From: Patescibacteria group bacterium
GTDB lineage: Bacteria > Patescibacteriota > Patescibacteriia > UBA2591 > UBA4787
DNA: 64,000 nucleotides
Direction: 5' to 3'
NCBI GenBank assembly: GCA_028715115.1
Contig: JAQUSN010000001.1
Span: 283,150 to 347,149 of the forward strand
In this document: positions 2 through 51,699 of the stretch, in pieces
Layout: the number at the start of each line of letters is the position of its first letter
Position numbering within the stretch: position 1 is the first letter of the stretch
Program-made: the position numbers and the translations under genes
The notes under the pieces: model-generated
Told to the model about the DNA's origin: nothing
What the model saw: only the letters and a program-made list of their open reading frames with translations
Databases searched by the model: none

Positions 2-685
2 CGCCTCAAAACAAACAAAAATAACGGCTATGAGCTATTTATAGGAGAAGACAAAAACAAAGATCAGTCATATTTTTTGTATCGCCTGCGCCAAGAGCAA
101 TTAAAATATCTTTTTTTTCCGCTCGGTGATTTAACCAAAAATCAAGTGCGTCAAATAGCCCAAAAAAATAAATTATTTACAGCAAAACGAGAAGAGTCAC
201 AGGAAATTTGTTTTGTTCCCGACGATAATTATCGCCAATTTTTATTAAATAACGGGCTAATTAATAAGCCAGGGAAAATTATTAATAAAAATAAAAAAAT
301 TATCGGTTATCATCATGGGCTATTTAATTATACGATTGGCCAAAGAAAGGGATTGGGTATTAGTAACCCCAGACCCCTCTATGTTGTTAAAATTGATATT
401 AAAAAAAATCAGTTAGTAACGGGTGAGGACAAAGAATTATTAAGTGATAAGTGTTTGGTTAAAAATGTCTCTTGGGTAAACGGTAAACCACCGAAAAAAA
501 ATTCTAAAATTACGGCTAAAATTCGTTATCACAGCTTAGCAACTAGGGTGAATATCAAAAAAGATGGCGTTAATTATATTTGTTATTTTGTAAAAAAACA
601 ACGCGCTATTACGCCTGGCCAGTCGATTGTTTTTTATCAGGGGCAGCGTCTTTTGGGCGGCGGAATTATCAATCGGAGCTATTGA
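2..685 (+). CDS. mnmA: tRNA-specific 2-thiouridylase MnmA, C-terminal part (5' end lies outside the window)
   Basis: The in-frame translation from nt 2 contains the KDQSYFLY motif and a C-terminal beta-barrel region typical of MnmA. No stop occurs before the ORF-track start at 77. Confidence 0.7.
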   Translation, partial: RLKTNKNNGYELFIGEDKNKDQSYFLYRLRQEQLKYLFFPLGDLTKNQVRQIAQKNKLFTAKREESQEICFVPDDNYRQFLLNNGLINKPGKIINKNKKIIGYHHGLFNYTIGQRKGLGISNPRPLYVVKIDIKKNQLVTGEDKELLSDKCLVKNVSWVNGKPPKKNSKITAKIRYHSLATRVNIKKDGVNYICYFVKKQRAITPGQSIVFYQGQRLLGGGIINRSY

Positions 686-732
686 TTAAAGCAAATAAAT
701 TTGATATTATATATCAAGTCTCTGAACAAGGC

Positions 733-805
733 TGCGGGATCGTCTAACGGTAGGACAGCAGCCTTTGGAGCTGCCTATCCTGGTTCGAATCCAGGTCCCG
801 CAGCC
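733..805 (+). tRNA. tRNA-Gln (anticodon UUG)
   Basis: The cloverleaf can be folded by hand: acceptor TGCGGGA/TCCCGCA with U1-A72 and a G73 discriminator (bacterial Gln identity elements), D stem GTCT/GGAC, anticodon stem GCAGC/GCTGC with loop CTTTGGA, and T arm CCTGG-TTCGAAT-CCAGG. CC is encoded at the 3' end. Confidence 0.8.
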
Positions 806-819
806 TTGTTCGGAAGTAA

Positions 820-922
820 GTCTAACGGCCCGCCCCGTAACGCCTGAGCGTAGCGATGGCGGGCGGGTAGGACAGCAGCCTTTGGAGCTGCCTATCCTGG
901 TTCGAATCCAGGTCCCGCAGGC
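820..922 (+). pseudogene. Truncated duplicate of tRNA-Gln (D arm to 3' end) with a 37-nt GC-rich hairpin insert in the D loop; no 5' acceptor strand
   Basis: Positions 866-920 are near-identical to tRNA-Gln 751-804, and 820-828 (gtctaacgg) repeats the D arm. The insert 829-865 (cccgcc...agcgtag...ggcgggcg) forms a hairpin. The upstream sequence cannot pair as an acceptor stem. Confidence 0.6.
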
Positions 923-1039
923 TTGGACGCAAGCGCGTAGAAGGTTAGGCGTTTTATCCTTTAATTCGAGGCTTTTTGAGCCTTGATTTTTTATAAAAAT
1001 TTTGCTATAGTGTAAATACAGCCATAAGGAGGCTTTATA

Positions 1040-1600
1040 ATGAATACAATCGTAACTTCCTCCCGAAAGATGTTATGGCAGATCCTGGCTCGATTGATTC
1101 CCAGGCCTAAACTCAGGGCGCTTGGTTATGAGTATGCCTTTAGGCCCGAAAGCCTCGAGGCATTCCAACTCGTGGCCGACATCGGTCCGGCGCCTAGGTA
1201 TTTTAGGCTTGAGTTTCATCCTTTCATGCATGCTGATGAGTGTCAGGCGGGCGAACCGTGGAGTGTGTCCGGCGACGAAGTGCGTCGTCGGGCCTTAGGA
1301 GAAGAGGGCGAGGCAGCTGGTCAGGCTATTGCTGAAGTGATCATGAGAAATCCCGATGAGCTAAGGGCTCTGATTGGATCTGGTCGAGCTACCGGGCTGA
1401 TCATGAGGGATGTTGATAGAGAGCAGACCATGCCTAGAACTATTCTTTTCCCGGCCACGGTTTGGCAACACAAGGACGGCACTCAGTTCGTTCTCGCCAT
1501 AATCTGTCCGGGAACCAGGCGCCAGAGACTGGTGTTTATTTCCTTGAATCAGCAATTCTGTGGGCCAGGATGTTGCACCGCGCATTTTCGGGCGAGATAG
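1040..1600 (+). CDS. Hypothetical protein (GC-rich ORF)
   Basis: 186-aa ORF at about 58% GC with an AAGGAGG ribosome-binding site 7 nt upstream. An extended -10 promoter (TTGATT-17-TGcTATAGT) lies at 982-1010. A hairpin terminator follows at 1675-1692. Confidence 0.45.
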   Translation: MNTIVTSSRKMLWQILARLIPRPKLRALGYEYAFRPESLEAFQLVADIGPAPRYFRLEFHPFMHADECQAGEPWSVSGDEVRRRALGEEGEAAGQAIAEVIMRNPDELRALIGSGRATGLIMRDVDREQTMPRTILFPATVWQHKDGTQFVLAIICPGTRRQRLVFISLNQQFCGPGCCTAHFRAR

Positions 1601-1674
1601 CTCATCCGTCTAGCTCCTGCCGTTTCATTGCGGCGGGAGTCTTTATATTTTTTTAATTTTAAAGAATAAAGAAA

Positions 1675-1692
1675 GAGGCCCGCAGGGGCCTC
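1675..1692. terminator. Bidirectional GC hairpin GAGGCCC-GCAG-GGGCCTC between convergent genes
   Basis: Perfect 7-bp stem, with an A-run upstream and a T-rich tract downstream. Confidence 0.5.
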
Positions 1693-1713
1693 TTCTGGTT
1701 TATATCTGCTCGA

Positions 1714-2469
1714 TCAACCTCCAATGATCGTGCCGATGAACTCCTGGCCTTCCAGGAGCTTCTTCAGATTGTTCAGGTCACCGGAGACGACCGCGACCTG
1801 GATGTTCCACTGCCGGGCCAGTCTGCTGGCTACTGGGTCGAAGGGGGTCGAAAGTCCGGGCGTCCATTCTTTGGGAATGAAGCTCAGATATTGCTCCCAG
1901 GTGAGATGGTCGAACGGCTTGGCGCTTGGGTGCTTCCGGGGGTCTTTATCGAAAACTCTGAGAACGTTGCTCACGTTGATGACCAGGTCGGCCATTGCCG
2001 TGCGGGCCCTCTCCACTGCGCACCAGTCTGTCGAACGGCCCGGCTTAAAACCGTGGCCGATGATTACTGGCTTGCGAGTCTTTACCGCAGCCGAGGGATC
2101 TCTGATCAGCAGACGATAGGCCTGATTTCCCAGGGCTACCTGCAAGAGTCGCGCGTTGAGCACCGTAGCTTCGATACCCACCTGGTCTCGCAGGGCGAGA
2201 ACTTGCCGGGCCTTAGCCAGGCCGTTGTACCGAGAGCTTCTTTGCGCAAGCATCTCGGCAACCCGGTTATAGGCTCTGGCGGTTGATCCACCACCGACCG
2301 TGACCAAATACTGATGGTCGCAGCTATGGTCGATCAAGAGCTCAGCGAACGTGTGGACGAACCAGGGGTCTAGGCTGATGCCCATACCCCGTTTAACGGT
2401 CACCTTCGGGTTAACCATCGAGCCTCCCAAAGAGACGGAGACCCGTCGGCCTACTTTCAGTATTGGCAC
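1714..2469 (-). CDS. pyrH: UMP kinase, archaeal type (amino acid kinase family)
   Basis: Contains VTVGGGSTARAY and GFKPGRSTD...VINVSNVLRVFDKDP, which match the archaeal PyrH signatures (VTGGGSTAR; GGxQPGQST...ATNVDGVYxKDP). GTG start with an AAGGAGG ribosome-binding site. The coding DNA is GC-rich. Confidence 0.55.
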   Translation of the reverse strand: MPILKVGRRVSVSLGGSMVNPKVTVKRGMGISLDPWFVHTFAELLIDHSCDHQYLVTVGGGSTARAYNRVAEMLAQRSSRYNGLAKARQVLALRDQVGIEATVLNARLLQVALGNQAYRLLIRDPSAAVKTRKPVIIGHGFKPGRSTDWCAVERARTAMADLVINVSNVLRVFDKDPRKHPSAKPFDHLTWEQYLSFIPKEWTPGLSTPFDPVASRLARQWNIQVAVVSGDLNNLKKLLEGQEFIGTIIGG

Positions 2470-2587
2470 TAATCCTCCTTTACGGATTTCTATGTTGATA
2501 TTGAAATAATAGCGTTTTTTGCTTGATTTGTCAAGGGATTTAATTAAAAAATTTTAATATTTTTTAATTAAATTTTTGATAACATAA

Positions 2588-2612
2588 AAACCGTGAGTTA
2601 ATCGCGGTTTTG
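2588..2612 (-). terminator. Intrinsic terminator (AAAACCGCG-loop-CACGGTTTT followed by TTTTT on the minus strand)
   Basis: Hairpin followed by a T-run on the minus strand, downstream of CDS 2664-3038. Confidence 0.4.
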
Positions 2613-2663
2613 TTTATAAGCGAACCCTCGGGCAGGACGCCCGAGGGGTTGAAATGAACTCTG

Positions 2664-3038
2664 CTAGACTGCCAGGATGGTTCCTTCAACCACCCCTTTA
2701 TTGAAGACGAGAGCAACGCGAGCGAGTCGCGCCAGTGTCTTGTTGCCAGGGTCGACGTCACGGACCTTTCGGCCATCATGGCACTCCAGTTGACCGAAGA
2801 GGGTCAGCACTCTCTCGTCACTGGCCGCCAGCGGAGAGAGACTTCGAATGCGGATGCCGATTCTTCCGTATTCGCTCTGGAATGTTACGATTGGCTCCTT
2901 CGCCGGCGAACAGACCAAGAGCGTCATTCTGGTTATGAAGGCCACTGCGTCAGGGGAGTAGGTCACGGCTACGCCGAGAGACAGCGCACCTTGCAGCACG
3001 TCTAACTTTTCCTTCGCTGGGCTATCTGTTGTTGGCAT
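2664..3038 (-). CDS. Hypothetical protein (GC-rich ORF)
   Basis: 124-aa ORF with an AAGGAGG ribosome-binding site 4 nt before the ATG. A divergent promoter TTGACA-16-TATAAT lies in 3060-3100 on the minus strand. Confidence 0.4.
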   Translation of the reverse strand: MPTTDSPAKEKLDVLQGALSLGVAVTYSPDAVAFITRMTLLVCSPAKEPIVTFQSEYGRIGIRIRSLSPLAASDERVLTLFGQLECHDGRKVRDVDPGNKTLARLARVALVFNKGVVEGTILAV

Positions 3039-3141
3039 AGATCCTCCTTTGTATGATTATATTATATCATTTCTTTGGCCTTTGTCAATAGACTGCTTGT
3101 CAGGTATATTTTTATCTGTTATAATCCTATTTATTGTTTTT

Positions 3142-3915: not shown

Positions 3916-4002
3916 GAGTTTGGGTTACTCCGCCTTGGCGGAGTGCTCAAAATTATACCTGCCTGCCGGCAGGCAGGGAAAAAATTTATTCACTTCATTC
4001 TA

Positions 4003-10946: not shown

Positions 10947-11238
10947 ATAAACATAAAATTTAACTATTACATTGTCACATATGTAACAGATCGGAATCAA
11001 CAAGACTAGCTAAAAACTTAATAGCGGATGTTGTTGACCTCCGCTGTTTATTTTGTCCAATTTACAAAATTTAGTAATTTAGACAATCAGTTGTTCATTA
11101 ACAATTTGAGTAATCGAATATTCCACCAAAGAATATTCCACTCATTTTACGACCACAACATTCATTCGTTTTTATGTTAATTTTTCCGGAGCGCTTAAAT
11201 TTATTTAAGCGAGTCGGAAAATCAAATCAAATTTTTTT

Positions 11239-12752
<1,514 letters not shown>

Positions 12753-13025
12753 TAGAGGAAAATTTCCCTCACTTTCTAGTTTTTTTGACATCAACAGGTT
12801 AGTCAAAGATGAATATATATGATGATTTATCTGACAACACAGAAGTGCTTTAAGAAAACTAGAAAGTGAGGGAAAGTCGATTGTTTTTATCTTGCTTCGG
12901 CAGGGTAGAAACAATTTGCCCTAGTTCCAATTTTATTGGAATTATGGTAAACAAGAATGTTGTGGTCGTAAAAGTAGTGGAAATAAAAAGCAAGCTTTTG
13001 ACAAGCTTGTTTTTTATTTAAAAAA

Positions 13026-13102
13026 TGGTGGGCGCACGAGGATTCGAACCTCGGACCTTTACAATGTCAATGTAACGCTCTAACCAACTGAGCTATGCGC
13101 CC
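13026..13102 (-). tRNA. tRNA-Val (anticodon GAC)
   Basis: Reverse complement GGGCGCATAGCTCAGTTGGTTAGAGCG-TTACA-TTGACAT-TGTAA...TTCGAATCC...TGCGCCCACCA. CCA is encoded. Confidence 0.85.
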
Positions 13103-13105
13103 CTC

Positions 13106-13182
13106 TGGTGGGTGTGGGAGGACTCGAACCTCCGACCTCTTCATTATCAGTGAAGTGCTCTAACCAGCTGAGCTACACACCC
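13106..13182 (-). tRNA. tRNA-Ile (anticodon GAU)
   Basis: Reverse complement GGGTGTGTAGCTCAGCTGGTTAGAGCA-CTTCA-CTGATAA-TGAAG...TTCGAGTCC...CACACCCACCA. The promoter TTGACA-16-TATAAT lies at 13196-13223 on the minus strand. Confidence 0.85.
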
Positions 13183-41744: not shown

Positions 41745-42062
41745 AGATTTTGTTGCTTAATTTTTTTGTTAAATTTGCTGGCGAAAATACAAAACCCGCC
41801 GCCAAGCGAGACTTGCGCCTCCTATACCCTTTCGGATATAGACCACGTGTATGGAGCCTGAACGACGGGTTCAGTCAGTATACACGTGGCTTTATTGCCA
41901 TGCCCACAGAGATTCCATGGGTTTAGGCAACTTAATTGTTGATTTTATAATAACATAAAGAAATAAAAAGGGTAGCCCAGTGAATAAATTGTGTAAATTT
42001 TCGGCTTCGTTTAGCTTGACAAATGTAAAAAATGCTATAAAATATAATAAACAAGGTCCAAA

Positions 42063-51313: not shown

Positions 51314-51335
51314 GTTTATTAAAGAGATAAATATA

Positions 51336-51362
51336 AAAAGCGGGCTCGGGGCTCGCTTTTTA
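51336..51362 (+). terminator. Intrinsic terminator AAAGCGGGCTC-GG-GGCTCGCTTTTT
   Basis: Hairpin plus a T-run after murJ. Confidence 0.5.
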
Positions 51363-51375
51363 TATTCTATTTTCA

Positions 51376-51466
51376 TACCCCCAAGAGGAATTGAACCTCT
51401 ATATCCAGTTCCCGCCTGCAATGTCAAGCGTAGTTTTGGCGGGCAGGTAGAAGGCTGGTGTTCTAT
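51376..51466 (-). pseudogene. Truncated duplicate of tRNA-Arg (3' half plus anticodon-arm region) with a 38-nt GC hairpin insert at the anticodon loop
   Basis: 51376-51408 and 51449-51466 match tRNA-Arg 51541-51573 and 51578-51595. The insert is tcccgcctgcaatgtcaagcgtagttttggcgggcagg. The 5' portion has diverged and no acceptor stem is possible. Confidence 0.55.
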
Positions 51467-51540
51467 TTATTGTCCGCTTTTGGCGGATCAGCCTTGGGCT
51501 GAAACTATAAGGTAAGTTGATTGGCTTATCTGCTCGCCAA

Positions 51541-51612
51541 TACCCCCAAGAGGAATCGAACCTCTATATCCAGCTTAGAAGGCTGGTGTTCTATCCATTG
51601 AACTATGGGGGC
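51541..51612 (-). tRNA. tRNA-Arg (anticodon UCU)
   Basis: Reverse complement GCCCCCATAGTTCAATGGATAGAACA-CCAGC-CTTCTAA-GCTGG-ATAT-AGAGGTTCGATTCCTCT-TGGGGGT-A. The CCA end is not encoded. Confidence 0.8.
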
Positions 51613-51699
51613 AGTGGCGAGTAGATAACAAATTATTATAAAATTTTAGCAAAAATTCAGAAAAAGTCAATTATTATTTAATGGCTGAATAAAATATTT

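Follow-up and report, generated by a model that had tools for sequence, protein, structure and literature searches.

A miniature palindromic hairpin, probably a non-autonomous insertion element, in interrupted second copies of tRNA-Gln and tRNA-Arg of a Patescibacteria genome

Rickettsia palindromic elements (RPEs) are found in-frame in many unrelated housekeeping genes, where they are translated as extra peptide segments (PMC10969869). Repetitive extragenic palindromic (REP) sequences carry an unpaired terminal GTAG or CGTC tag and are sometimes intragenic (PMC3733652); movement of REPs and REPINs is believed to proceed by single-stranded hairpins and to leave no target duplication (PMC3733652; PMC3116915). 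In Patescibacteria, group I introns sit in the anticodon loops of transfer RNA (tRNA) genes (PMC13011429). Here, we describe a hairpin element of consensus CCCGCCYGCTAACGCCTGAGCGTAGCGATGGCGGGCRGG, found in a 64,000-nt stretch of a Patescibacteria genome (contig JAQUSN010000001.1; the whole stretch is hereafter the window), in which it interrupts a second copy of tRNA-Gln and a second copy of tRNA-Arg. With a probability of roughly 0.7, we read these two inserts as copies of a non-autonomous palindromic insertion element that acts at the DNA level and is tolerated in tRNA DNA only beside a spare copy.

A preliminary description of the window had reported that intact tRNA-Gln and tRNA-Arg genes are each trailed by another copy holding a GC-rich hairpin insert, and repeat analysis and tRNA models (ARAGORN and the Rfam tRNA model) bear this out (Table 1). 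The motif that the two inserts appeared to have in common proves to be that of one family, both being recognized by its covariance model (R1), which finds exactly these two full copies in the 64 kb; the motif CCCGCC-N-GGCGGG is expected 0.01 times per window. An insert size of 37–38 nt had been proposed and is right for tRNA-Arg (37 nt), while family boundaries give 39 nt for tRNA-Gln. Deleting each insert restores the tRNA sequence exactly, save for one substitution at tRNA-Arg, and there is thus no target-site duplication. In tRNA-Gln the boundary falls between the two D-loop Gs and the next T (a GG/TA junction), and in tRNA-Arg between CUUCUA and A, after position 37, the substitution aside. 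Precise insertion without duplicated bases is likewise seen against an intact neighbour in L034 and L121 (L numbers are labels of loci retrieved in the scans described below). Flanking direct repeats, which the preliminary description had proposed to look for, are absent as target-site duplications, and local tandem repeats account for the short flank repeats present at a few sites. Folding of the inserts gives a stable hairpin (−25.9 kcal/mol for copy 1, z = −2.7). Their opposite orientation relative to the tRNAs also stands: both lie on one chromosome strand and are, therefore, antisense to each other with respect to the genes that they interrupt. Each locus has the same order of parts, namely a promoter-like site, the intact tRNA, the interrupted copy and a terminator-like hairpin. 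Because the interrupted copy lies between the intact gene and the terminator, the two are probably co-transcribed.

The family was delimited by scanning 185,579 genomes (one per species) with the pattern CCCGCC-N8-18-AGCGTAG-N3-TGGCGGG. At least 120 loci matched, and the listed matches comprise about 85 clear family members, about 30 loci with a Nostoc variant and a few chance matches in GC-rich genomes; all family counts given here (n = 80–85 copies) are among these listed matches. A metagenome scan for the element end followed by TAGRA yielded true copies at only about 15 of 72 loci, the others being mostly chance matches in GC-rich coding sequence. The roughly 85 relatives are nearly identical in sequence and can be written, with an optional T, as CCCGCCYGC(T)AACGCCTGAGCGTAGCGATGGCGGGCRGG; they measure 37–41 nt, with a main form of 39 nt. 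By record title, their hosts within the Patescibacteria are Saccharibacteria, Paceibacterota, Komeilibacteria, Kerfeldbacteria, Daviesbacteria, Levybacteria, Gottesmanbacteria, Woesebacteria, Falkowbacteria, Taylorbacteria and Zambryskiibacteria, and the other hosts are Desulfobacterales, Thermodesulfobacteriota, uncultured Gammaproteobacteria and Verrucomicrobia. The boundaries of the element are sharp: over 96 sites the flanks have no consensus and the 3' end C-R-G-G is conserved, the first 3' flanking base disfavouring A. Base pairs covary, position 7 (T or C) with a 3' A or G (pair 7:38; 22 UA, 23 CG), and CTT variants always show AAGC-GUA-GCUU in place of the tandem G.A of the main form. 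Two hairpin registers overlap, one of 13 pairs with 96.5% of cells paired and an alternative with 82.7%. An invariant GTAG lies internally (consensus positions 22–25 of 39), in the apical part of the hairpin, and the ends read CCCG... and ...CRGG.

Copies also occur head to tail without a spacer, in L041 (4218–4291) and L081 (6196–6274), labelled Terrimicrobiaceae and Zambryskiibacteriota, respectively. The variant found at about 30 loci of Nostoc, Scytonema and Tolypothrix (L001, L004, L005 and others) is 41 nt long, shares AGCGTAGCTTTGGCGGG and forms part of a larger repeat, longer than 100 nt, of which a Nostoc genome has many copies. A shorter relative with the same arms, CCTGCCCGCCATCTGGCAGGCGGG, is found in L062. 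The window itself has, after an ABC ATPase gene, a perfect GC palindrome with element-like arms and no interior (Table 1), which recurs identically in L021, L069, L084, L091 (twice) and L174. In L021 (6260–6760; Komeilibacteria), tRNA-Ile and tRNA-Phe each have a fragmentary copy, and the palindromes that break these copies are CCCCGCA..TGCGGGG and CCTGCCTGCCGGCAGGCAGG. Since these copies are broken by other GC palindromes, colonization of spare tRNA copies extends beyond the 39-nt family. Rfam returned no match to the element, whether at the gathering threshold or, over window positions 700–1040, with E values as high as 10. No description of it was found by literature searches on nucleotide sequence, peptide sequence and topic, and 2.9 million viral contigs lack it, giving 3 chance-like matches only.

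Proteins accommodate the element as well. Long open reading frames (ORFs) contain 25 of the 85 copies, and at least 17 of the 85 are in-frame in recognizable, Pfam-verified genes, to which they add about 13 residues. These genes encode BipA, LepA, CarB (in two genomes), ArgRS, enolase, MurB, a methyltransferase, CobU, a pseudouridine synthase, a thioredoxin-reductase-like protein, GatC, YraN, IspE, Xer and YbeY; a Ddl-like ORF with the element gave a weak match only. The frames used are only the open ones, that is ..RLLTPERSDGGQ.. or ..QRLSVAMAG.. in the sense direction and ..PARHRYAQALAGG.. or ..PPSLRSGV.. in the antisense direction, and the insertions are mostly in inter-domain linkers. In enolase, alignment with PDB 4yws leaves a 16-residue gap exactly at the element, in a domain linker. 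The use of open frames only, together with the location in linkers, points to an element that is translated rather than removed. The encoded 13-residue segment reads, for example, ARLLTPERSDGGQ in LepA, BipA and CobU and PAGQRLSVAMAGG in enolase; it is found in L061, L018, L071, L084, L091, L075, L119, L032, L040, L049 and other loci.

Relative to genes, placement is variable, with 20 copies in sense, 15 in antisense and 8 between convergent or divergent genes. The consensus strand is on the locally G-rich strand in 52 of 82 copies (p = 0.02), a bias that is confounded with gene orientation. Many copies sit at the tip of another stem: for 25% of 80 sites the flanking sequences pair with −8 kcal/mol or lower, versus 8.6% of 1,600 control sites. 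In L030, L062 and L106 the element occupies the loop of a Desulfobacteraceae palindromic repeat, GTAGGGGTTCGA..TCGAACCCCTAC. These three loci had been candidates for insertion into a tRNA T loop, which is ruled out by their identity as that repeat.

Proximity to tRNA genes is enriched and yet rare. Intact tRNAs lie within 100 nt of 5 of 83 copies, compared with 1.4% of bases (4.3-fold enrichment, p = 0.0065), and the two window copies are likewise this close to one. A check suggested in the preliminary description, namely whether the motif always sits beside tRNA fragments, thus has a negative answer, given this figure and the at least 17 of 85 copies in protein genes. The proposal of a mobile GC hairpin that targets tRNA-like DNA survives as to a discrete, bounded, multi-copy element and fails as to tRNA specificity. 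Such specificity is not supported, and the tRNA duplicates are best seen as the only sites in tRNA DNA where insertion survives. Wherever flank is available, the inspected tRNA-like sequences that bear the element all have a same-anticodon intact tRNA within 200 nt. This applies to both window loci, L034 and L121 (Arg-UCU), L193 (Arg-CCU), L153 (Arg-GCG), L142 and L082 (Gly-CCC), L171 (Val-UAC), L025 (Gln-CUG) and L110 (Met); L038 was left out of the tally since its contig ends there. In the interrupted copy of the window G18G19 has changed to AA and the 31:39 pair is broken, in that of L121 U54 has changed to C and the 30:40 pair is broken, and the 5' acceptor strands of the interrupted copies of both are degenerate. 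Judged by sequence, these private substitutions hit positions that no working tRNA would be expected to tolerate, and the interrupted copies presumably do not work as tRNAs.

At tRNA sites TAGRA often follows the element on its 3' side, a tendency to be read with the fact that part of the sample was selected by that very pattern and that it is not a consensus of all sites. In the D loop TAGRA reads in sense (GG-UAGRA), whereas Arg anticodon loops have it in antisense (U-YCU-A), and such a flank would explain the opposite orientations in the tRNA-Gln D loop and the tRNA-Arg anticodon loop. The ends of the element resemble 5' acceptor strands of the host tRNAs (GCGGG for tRNA-Gln; GCCCGCCA versus GCCCCCA for tRNA-Arg), probably a low-complexity coincidence.

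Fragments of tRNAs are common around these genes. About 18 of 77 tRNAs have self-fragments within 400 nt, half of them without an element nearby. Inverted repeats of 7–19 bp in leader and trailer extend the acceptor stem of the window tRNA-Gln and tRNA-Arg and of the tRNAs in L025, L075, L142, L171 and L193. Self-fragments are near 11 of 17 tRNAs with strong repeats of this kind versus 8 of 57 others (Fisher p = 1e-4; the sample of 74 tRNAs contains some redundant loci). The window tRNA-Ile and tRNA-Val (13026–13182) have an encoded CCA and no such arms, and tRNA-Gln and tRNA-Arg are the opposite on both counts. In three loci an intact tRNA is nested within another. In L075 (663–848), positions 1–34 of tRNA-Pro are followed by CCTGCCCGCCATTGCC.., an intact tRNA-Pro, ..GGCTATGGCAGGCGGG and positions 34–71, inner and outer sequences being 100% identical. 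In L034 (4330–4700; tRNA-Arg(UCU)) and L193 (5790–6000; tRNA-Arg(CCU)), an intact tRNA lies between CCCGCCA... and ...TGGCGGG arms in the D loop of the outer tRNA, whose anticodon loop also holds a 39-nt element. The arms of all three follow the pattern CCYGCCCGCCA.. / ..TGGCRGGCGGG.

Table 1. Coordinates of the two tRNA modules and of an element-like palindrome in the window
Feature	Position	Strand	Evidence
Promoter-like site upstream of the tRNA-Gln module	682–710	+	TTGATT-17-TATTAT, 9/12 matches, consensus match only
Leader arm, pairs with trailer and prolongs the tRNA-Gln acceptor stem	721–732	+	Inverted repeat 721–739 / 796–814, 19 nt, 95% complementary
Intact tRNA-Gln(UUG), CCA not encoded	733–803	+	ARAGORN (733–805); Rfam tRNA model, 60.9 bits
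Trailer arm, complementary to leader	804–814	+	Same inverted repeat, 721–739 / 796–814
Second tRNA-Gln copy, 5' piece GTCTAACGG: D stem and D loop to the two conserved Gs	820–828	+	Sequence, alignment
Element copy 1, 39 nt, CCCGCCCCGTAACGCCTGAGCGTAGCGATGGCGGGCGGG, sense relative to tRNA	829–867	+	Family covariance model, 55.7 bits, E = 6.6e-12
Second tRNA-Gln copy, 3' piece: D loop to 3' end, with trailer similarity	868–933	+	Direct repeat; Rfam partial tRNA match 863–919, 29.2 bits
Terminator-like hairpin and T run closing the tRNA-Gln/copy unit	966–986	+	Terminator scan
Perfect 20-nt GC palindrome CCTGCCTGCCGGCAGGCAGG, element-like arms, no interior, after ABC ATPase gene	3958–3977		Model R1, 15.7 bits
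Bidirectional terminator-like hairpin, common to murJ and the tRNA-Arg/copy unit	51330–51366		Terminator scan, inverted repeat
Second tRNA-Arg copy, 3' half: anticodon stem 3' strand, T arm, 3' acceptor strand	51375–51410	−	Direct repeat 51375–51408 / 51540–51573, 34 nt, 97%
Element copy 2, 37 nt, CCCGCCTGCAATGTCAAGCGTAGTTTTGGCGGGCAGG, antisense to tRNA, after anticodon-loop position 37	51411–51447	+	Family model, 44.9 bits, E = 3.8e-9
Second tRNA-Arg copy: D loop, D stem 3' strand, anticodon stem 5' strand, loop to position 37	51448–51472	−	Direct repeat 51448–51472 / 51576–51600, 25 nt, 92%
28-nt insertion of two small hairpins, AGCCCAAGGCT and TCCGCCAAAAGCGGA, in the D loop of the second copy	51473–51500	−	L121 alignment: same site, two hairpins of different sequence
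Degenerate 5' acceptor strand and D stem 5' strand of the second copy, TACCTTATAGTTTC	51501–51514	−	Aligned with L121 CACCCCATAGTTTC and intact gene GCCCCCATAGTTC
Trailer arm TGGCGAG of intact tRNA-Arg	51533–51539	−	Leader/trailer duplex, −18.5 kcal/mol
Intact tRNA-Arg(UCU)	51541–51612	−	ARAGORN; Rfam, 73.6 bits
Leader arm CTCGCCA of intact tRNA-Arg	51615–51621	−	Sequence, leader/trailer duplex
Promoter-like site of the tRNA-Arg module	51643–51670	−	TTGACT-16-TAAAAT, 10/12 matches

In the tRNA-Gln module (733–933, plus strand), the second copy begins at the D stem, resumes after the element with TAGGAC...CCCGCAG and reaches the 3' end together with about 13 nt of trailer. The direct repeat between 749–816 and 866–933 spans 68 nt at 94% identity, and the unit of tandem duplication is about 79 nt. 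The trailers differ in that the copy has G at 921 and the intact gene C at 804. Both copies had been said to lack a 5' acceptor strand, which is correct for tRNA-Gln; tRNA-Arg has a degenerate one, revealed by L121. Orthologues of the tRNA-Gln locus were not obtained: identity to the nearest MnmA relatives does not exceed 58%, the contigs concerned either stop at the tRNA or have their genes in another order, and the exact MnmA product of the window has no match on record. Directly after the module lies a 2-kb island of 53% GC (1000–3040; background about 38%) with ORFs at 1040–1600 (plus strand), 1714–2469 (minus strand; amino-acid kinase family) and 2664–3038 (minus strand). It looks horizontally acquired.

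The tRNA-Arg module (51330–51670, minus strand) is better served by relatives. Its unit of tandem duplication is about 128 nt, and the orthologous site carries the element in both L121 and L034. The relative represented by L121–L123, whose MurJ is 75% identical, has an orthologous module in which the copy is a full-length tRNA: a 5' acceptor and D stem strand (CACCCCATAGTTTC) is followed by a D-loop insertion of about 50 nt with two hairpins, next come the D loop and the anticodon arm, where the element holds the same position as in the window, and lastly the T arm and the 3' strand of the acceptor stem. By this alignment the window tRNA-Arg copy is more than a 3' half and reads as a complete second gene with three hairpin insertions. 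The leader/trailer helix of tRNA-Arg covaries (CTCGCCA/TGGCGAG in the window, TTCATCC/GGGTGAG in L121). In a further relative, L204 (MurJ 67% identical), there is a single tRNA-Arg, without copy and without element. A gene for a Xer-type tyrosine recombinase, 1.9 kb from tRNA-Arg, is a conserved chromosomal neighbour that L204 has kept.

The structure of the module is not an artefact of assembly, since the tRNA-Arg region (387 nt) is identical in three full-length assemblies (window, L210 and L211) and a fourth, L209, matches it over the 282 nt covered before its contig ends. Contigs assembled from short reads of the same organism end near window position 51595 (L209 and L212) or start at about 891 (L213–L215), that is, they stop inside both duplications, as expected for a true repeat. 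An assembly artefact and a motif absent elsewhere were among the outcomes that the preliminary description had named against its own account; four agreeing assemblies and at least 120 scan loci were found instead.

The explanation that we favour is that a miniature GC-rich palindrome of 37–41 nt, inserting precisely and without target-site duplication, would spread at the DNA level by means of an enzyme supplied in trans. The element has no gene and no recurrent protein neighbour, and its mover must therefore act in trans. It may enter, as a single-stranded hairpin, the loops of hairpin-forming DNA; such a route would fit the lack of duplicated bases, the tendency to sit at stem tips and the weak strand bias. 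Copies would then persist where they are tolerated, which would include intergenic DNA, often at the tip of an existing hairpin, protein genes when the landing is in an open frame (39 nt being 13 codons), and tRNA-like DNA solely if an intact tRNA of that kind accompanies it. A tRNA cannot absorb 39 nt as a protein linker can, hence the expectation of the element in tRNA DNA only where a spare copy exists. Duplicates of tRNAs would arise and decay often in these genomes, duplication probably coming first and insertion second. Both window copies sit in decaying second tRNA copies that are tandem duplicates.

Several observations sit uneasily with this explanation. No transposase or other trans-acting enzyme was found near the element: all-versus-all clustering of 1,579 ORFs from the non-Nostoc 8-kb loci returned only housekeeping families as recurrent, with no transposase and no gene resembling a REP-associated tyrosine transposase (RAYT). 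Nor was a polymorphism of occupied and empty sites seen within one species, the four assemblies being identical; with neither enzyme nor polymorphism, mobility is deduced from distribution and is unobserved. The host assignments outside the Patescibacteria are unverified record labels. The intact tRNAs nested in the D or anticodon loop of an older copy (L075, L034 and L193) are not accounted for by duplication first and insertion later. Finally, between the window and L121 the interrupted tRNA-Arg copy, its element included (33 of 39 positions), retains about 90% identity, at a distance at which murJ is saturated at four-fold degenerate sites (33.5% identity) and the difference between the intact tRNA-Arg genes is about 24%. 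A neutral pseudogene would be unrecognizable at such a distance, which leaves the slow change of this copy unexplained. Gene conversion from the intact neighbour could explain the window and not L121, whose intact neighbour differs in sequence; either the intact gene of L121 was recently replaced, or the interrupted copy is under some constraint.

There is, accordingly, a real possibility that hairpin and duplication are mechanistically linked, and the corresponding explanation is the main alternative, although we consider it unlikely. It holds that arm-tRNA-arm cassettes are carried as cargo, or that a break at a hairpin tip is repaired by copying the intact allele, the old gene being disrupted and rebuilt in one process of which the window modules are older, partly decayed products. 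The nested modules of L075, L034 and L193 are what such a process would leave, and the arms of the window tRNA-Arg (CTCGCCA/TGGCGAG) look like degenerate GC-hairpin arms. Strong leader/trailer repeats go with self-fragments, as given above, and the intact tRNAs of L121 and L193 are strongly unlike the interrupted ones, as if the cassette were foreign. The window tRNA-Gln arms (TCTGAACAAGGC/GCCTTGTTCGGA), however, are not GC-hairpin-like, both window modules are tandem rather than nested, and tRNA fragments are also found with no element nearby. The leader/trailer helices may, moreover, be RNA-processing stems, the tRNA-Arg helix covarying between the window and L121, and the sample in which they were counted is partly redundant. 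We know of no enzymology for either the cargo or the break-repair route. A bolder suggestion, to which we give somewhat less credence, is that hairpins of this family drive tRNA gene turnover, as mobile arm-tRNA-arm cassettes or as break-repair products that rebuild an intact tRNA. If true, it would mean a tRNA nested in a hairpin nested in a tRNA, with the disrupted predecessor retained under constraint, and a previously undescribed replacement route for essential RNA genes in ultra-small genomes.

Other explanations give the hairpin a role for the host or a different origin. A host-useful structural module (a stabilizing or processing hairpin, or a protein-binding or DNA site) kept by selection could account for near-identical sequence in very distant lineages, covariation that keeps the pairing, the modest bias towards the G-rich strand and the frequency at stem tips. 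It is nevertheless improbable, given that one fifth of copies interrupt housekeeping coding sequences, that head-to-tail tandems exist (L041 and L081), that gene-relative placement is inconsistent and that the close relative L204 has no element at the same locus. As for the suggestion that the insert is primarily a terminator or processing site, it is not supported: the element is followed by no U tract, differs in sense, relative to the tRNA transcript, between its two window copies and differs from the intrinsic terminators, which are called separately at 966–986 and 51330–51366. We find it quite improbable that the element is instead an RNA-level insert (a mini-intron or processed hairpin) removed from transcripts of functional interrupted copies. 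One may cite for it that the interrupted tRNA-Arg copy evolves far more slowly than neutral sites, that each copy is inside a tRNA transcription unit, that hairpin base pairs covary and that the tRNA-Arg insert occupies the canonical intron position 37/38, in a phylum unusually rich in group I tRNA introns (PMC13011429). Those introns are self-splicing, hundreds of nt long and located in the only functional copy, in contrast to 39 nt in either orientation beside an intact twin; the paper that describes them (PMC13011429) makes no mention of short hairpins or tRNA fragments. A length of 39 nt is far too small for a group I or II ribozyme, Rfam gives no match at E = 10, and inspection of the junctions revealed no bulge-helix-bulge (3-4-3). 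The element is present in both orientations relative to host RNA, in tRNA copies as in coding sequences, and the latter show open frames only, with insertions in inter-domain linkers. The interrupted tRNAs have an intact twin wherever flank is available; their acceptor strands are degenerate and G18G19 or U54 is mutated.

Partial 3' tRNA repeats are a classic scar of integration. The preliminary description had accordingly considered remnants of site-specific integration, and one could imagine attL/attR scars of integrative elements with the hairpin as part of the attachment site, in view of the GC-rich island after the tRNA-Gln module and of the Xer-type gene near tRNA-Arg. This explanation is very improbable. 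The similarity of the copies to the tRNA continues up to the D arm or the 5' acceptor strand, beyond the 3' end, and both tRNA-Gln repeats are on the same side of the island, rather than at its two borders as in an integrase scar; window analysis of 1000–3040 found no tRNA repeat at the far end and no integrase. The recombinase is the conserved chromosomal Xer, present in L204 without any duplication, and more than 80 sites with no relation to tRNAs or islands carry this hairpin too.

If the insertion-element explanation is right, a selfish hairpin of 39 nt has invaded essential protein genes and tRNA DNA in some of the smallest bacterial genomes. It would account for the breaks of short-read assemblies at these tRNA loci, for partial tRNA matches beside real tRNAs and for the odd ..RLLTPERSDGGQ.. 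segment in some housekeeping proteins. The nested modules and the slow-evolving disrupted tRNA copy point, in addition, to an unstudied process of tRNA gene replacement. Two further features of the window may be recorded. A LOOT RNA (RF03000), a structured RNA of unknown function, is matched with 81 bits at 41808–41929 on the minus strand. The 16S rRNA gene (plus strand) is followed by tRNA-Ile and tRNA-Val on the opposite strand (11234–13182), where co-oriented spacer tRNAs and a 23S gene are usual.

Compared with known systems, the element is closest in behaviour to RPEs, and no sequence relationship is expected. Both are palindromic repeats that code for no transposase and reside in-frame in housekeeping ORFs. 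RPEs are about 100–150 bp long and are restricted to Rickettsia, whereas the element, at 37–41 nt, is a quarter of that size and is recorded from several phyla. To our knowledge, association with duplicated tRNAs and tRNAs nested between arms are not described features of RPEs. With REPs and REPINs the element shares the form of a short (20–40 bp) imperfect palindrome, multiple copies, occasional residence in genes and possible RNA hairpins. Its GTAG is, in contrast, internal and not a terminal tag, its distribution crosses phyla whereas REP families are species- or genus-specific, and no RAYT-like gene lies beside any copy in the non-Nostoc 8-kb loci. Classical miniature inverted-repeat transposable elements differ by their target-site duplication. 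The absence of duplication would fit IS200/IS605-type (PATE-like) single-strand transposition, in which insertion is next to a fixed target of 4–5 nt and in one orientation relative to it; over the 96 sites no flank consensus is seen. Elhai et al., in 2008, reportedly described very small dispersed repeats (SDR families) in Nostoc, which may be likened by description as mobile-looking repeats below 50 nt with hairpin potential that are nested in other repeats; the Patescibacteria element differs in being a free-standing 39-mer. The GC clusters and double-hairpin elements of fungal mitochondria are short GC-rich palindromes that spread in AT-rich, compact genomes, into or near tRNA, rRNA and protein genes; they are organellar and lineage-specific, and the likeness is by analogy only. 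The element works like RPEs and REPs and lacks defining features of both.

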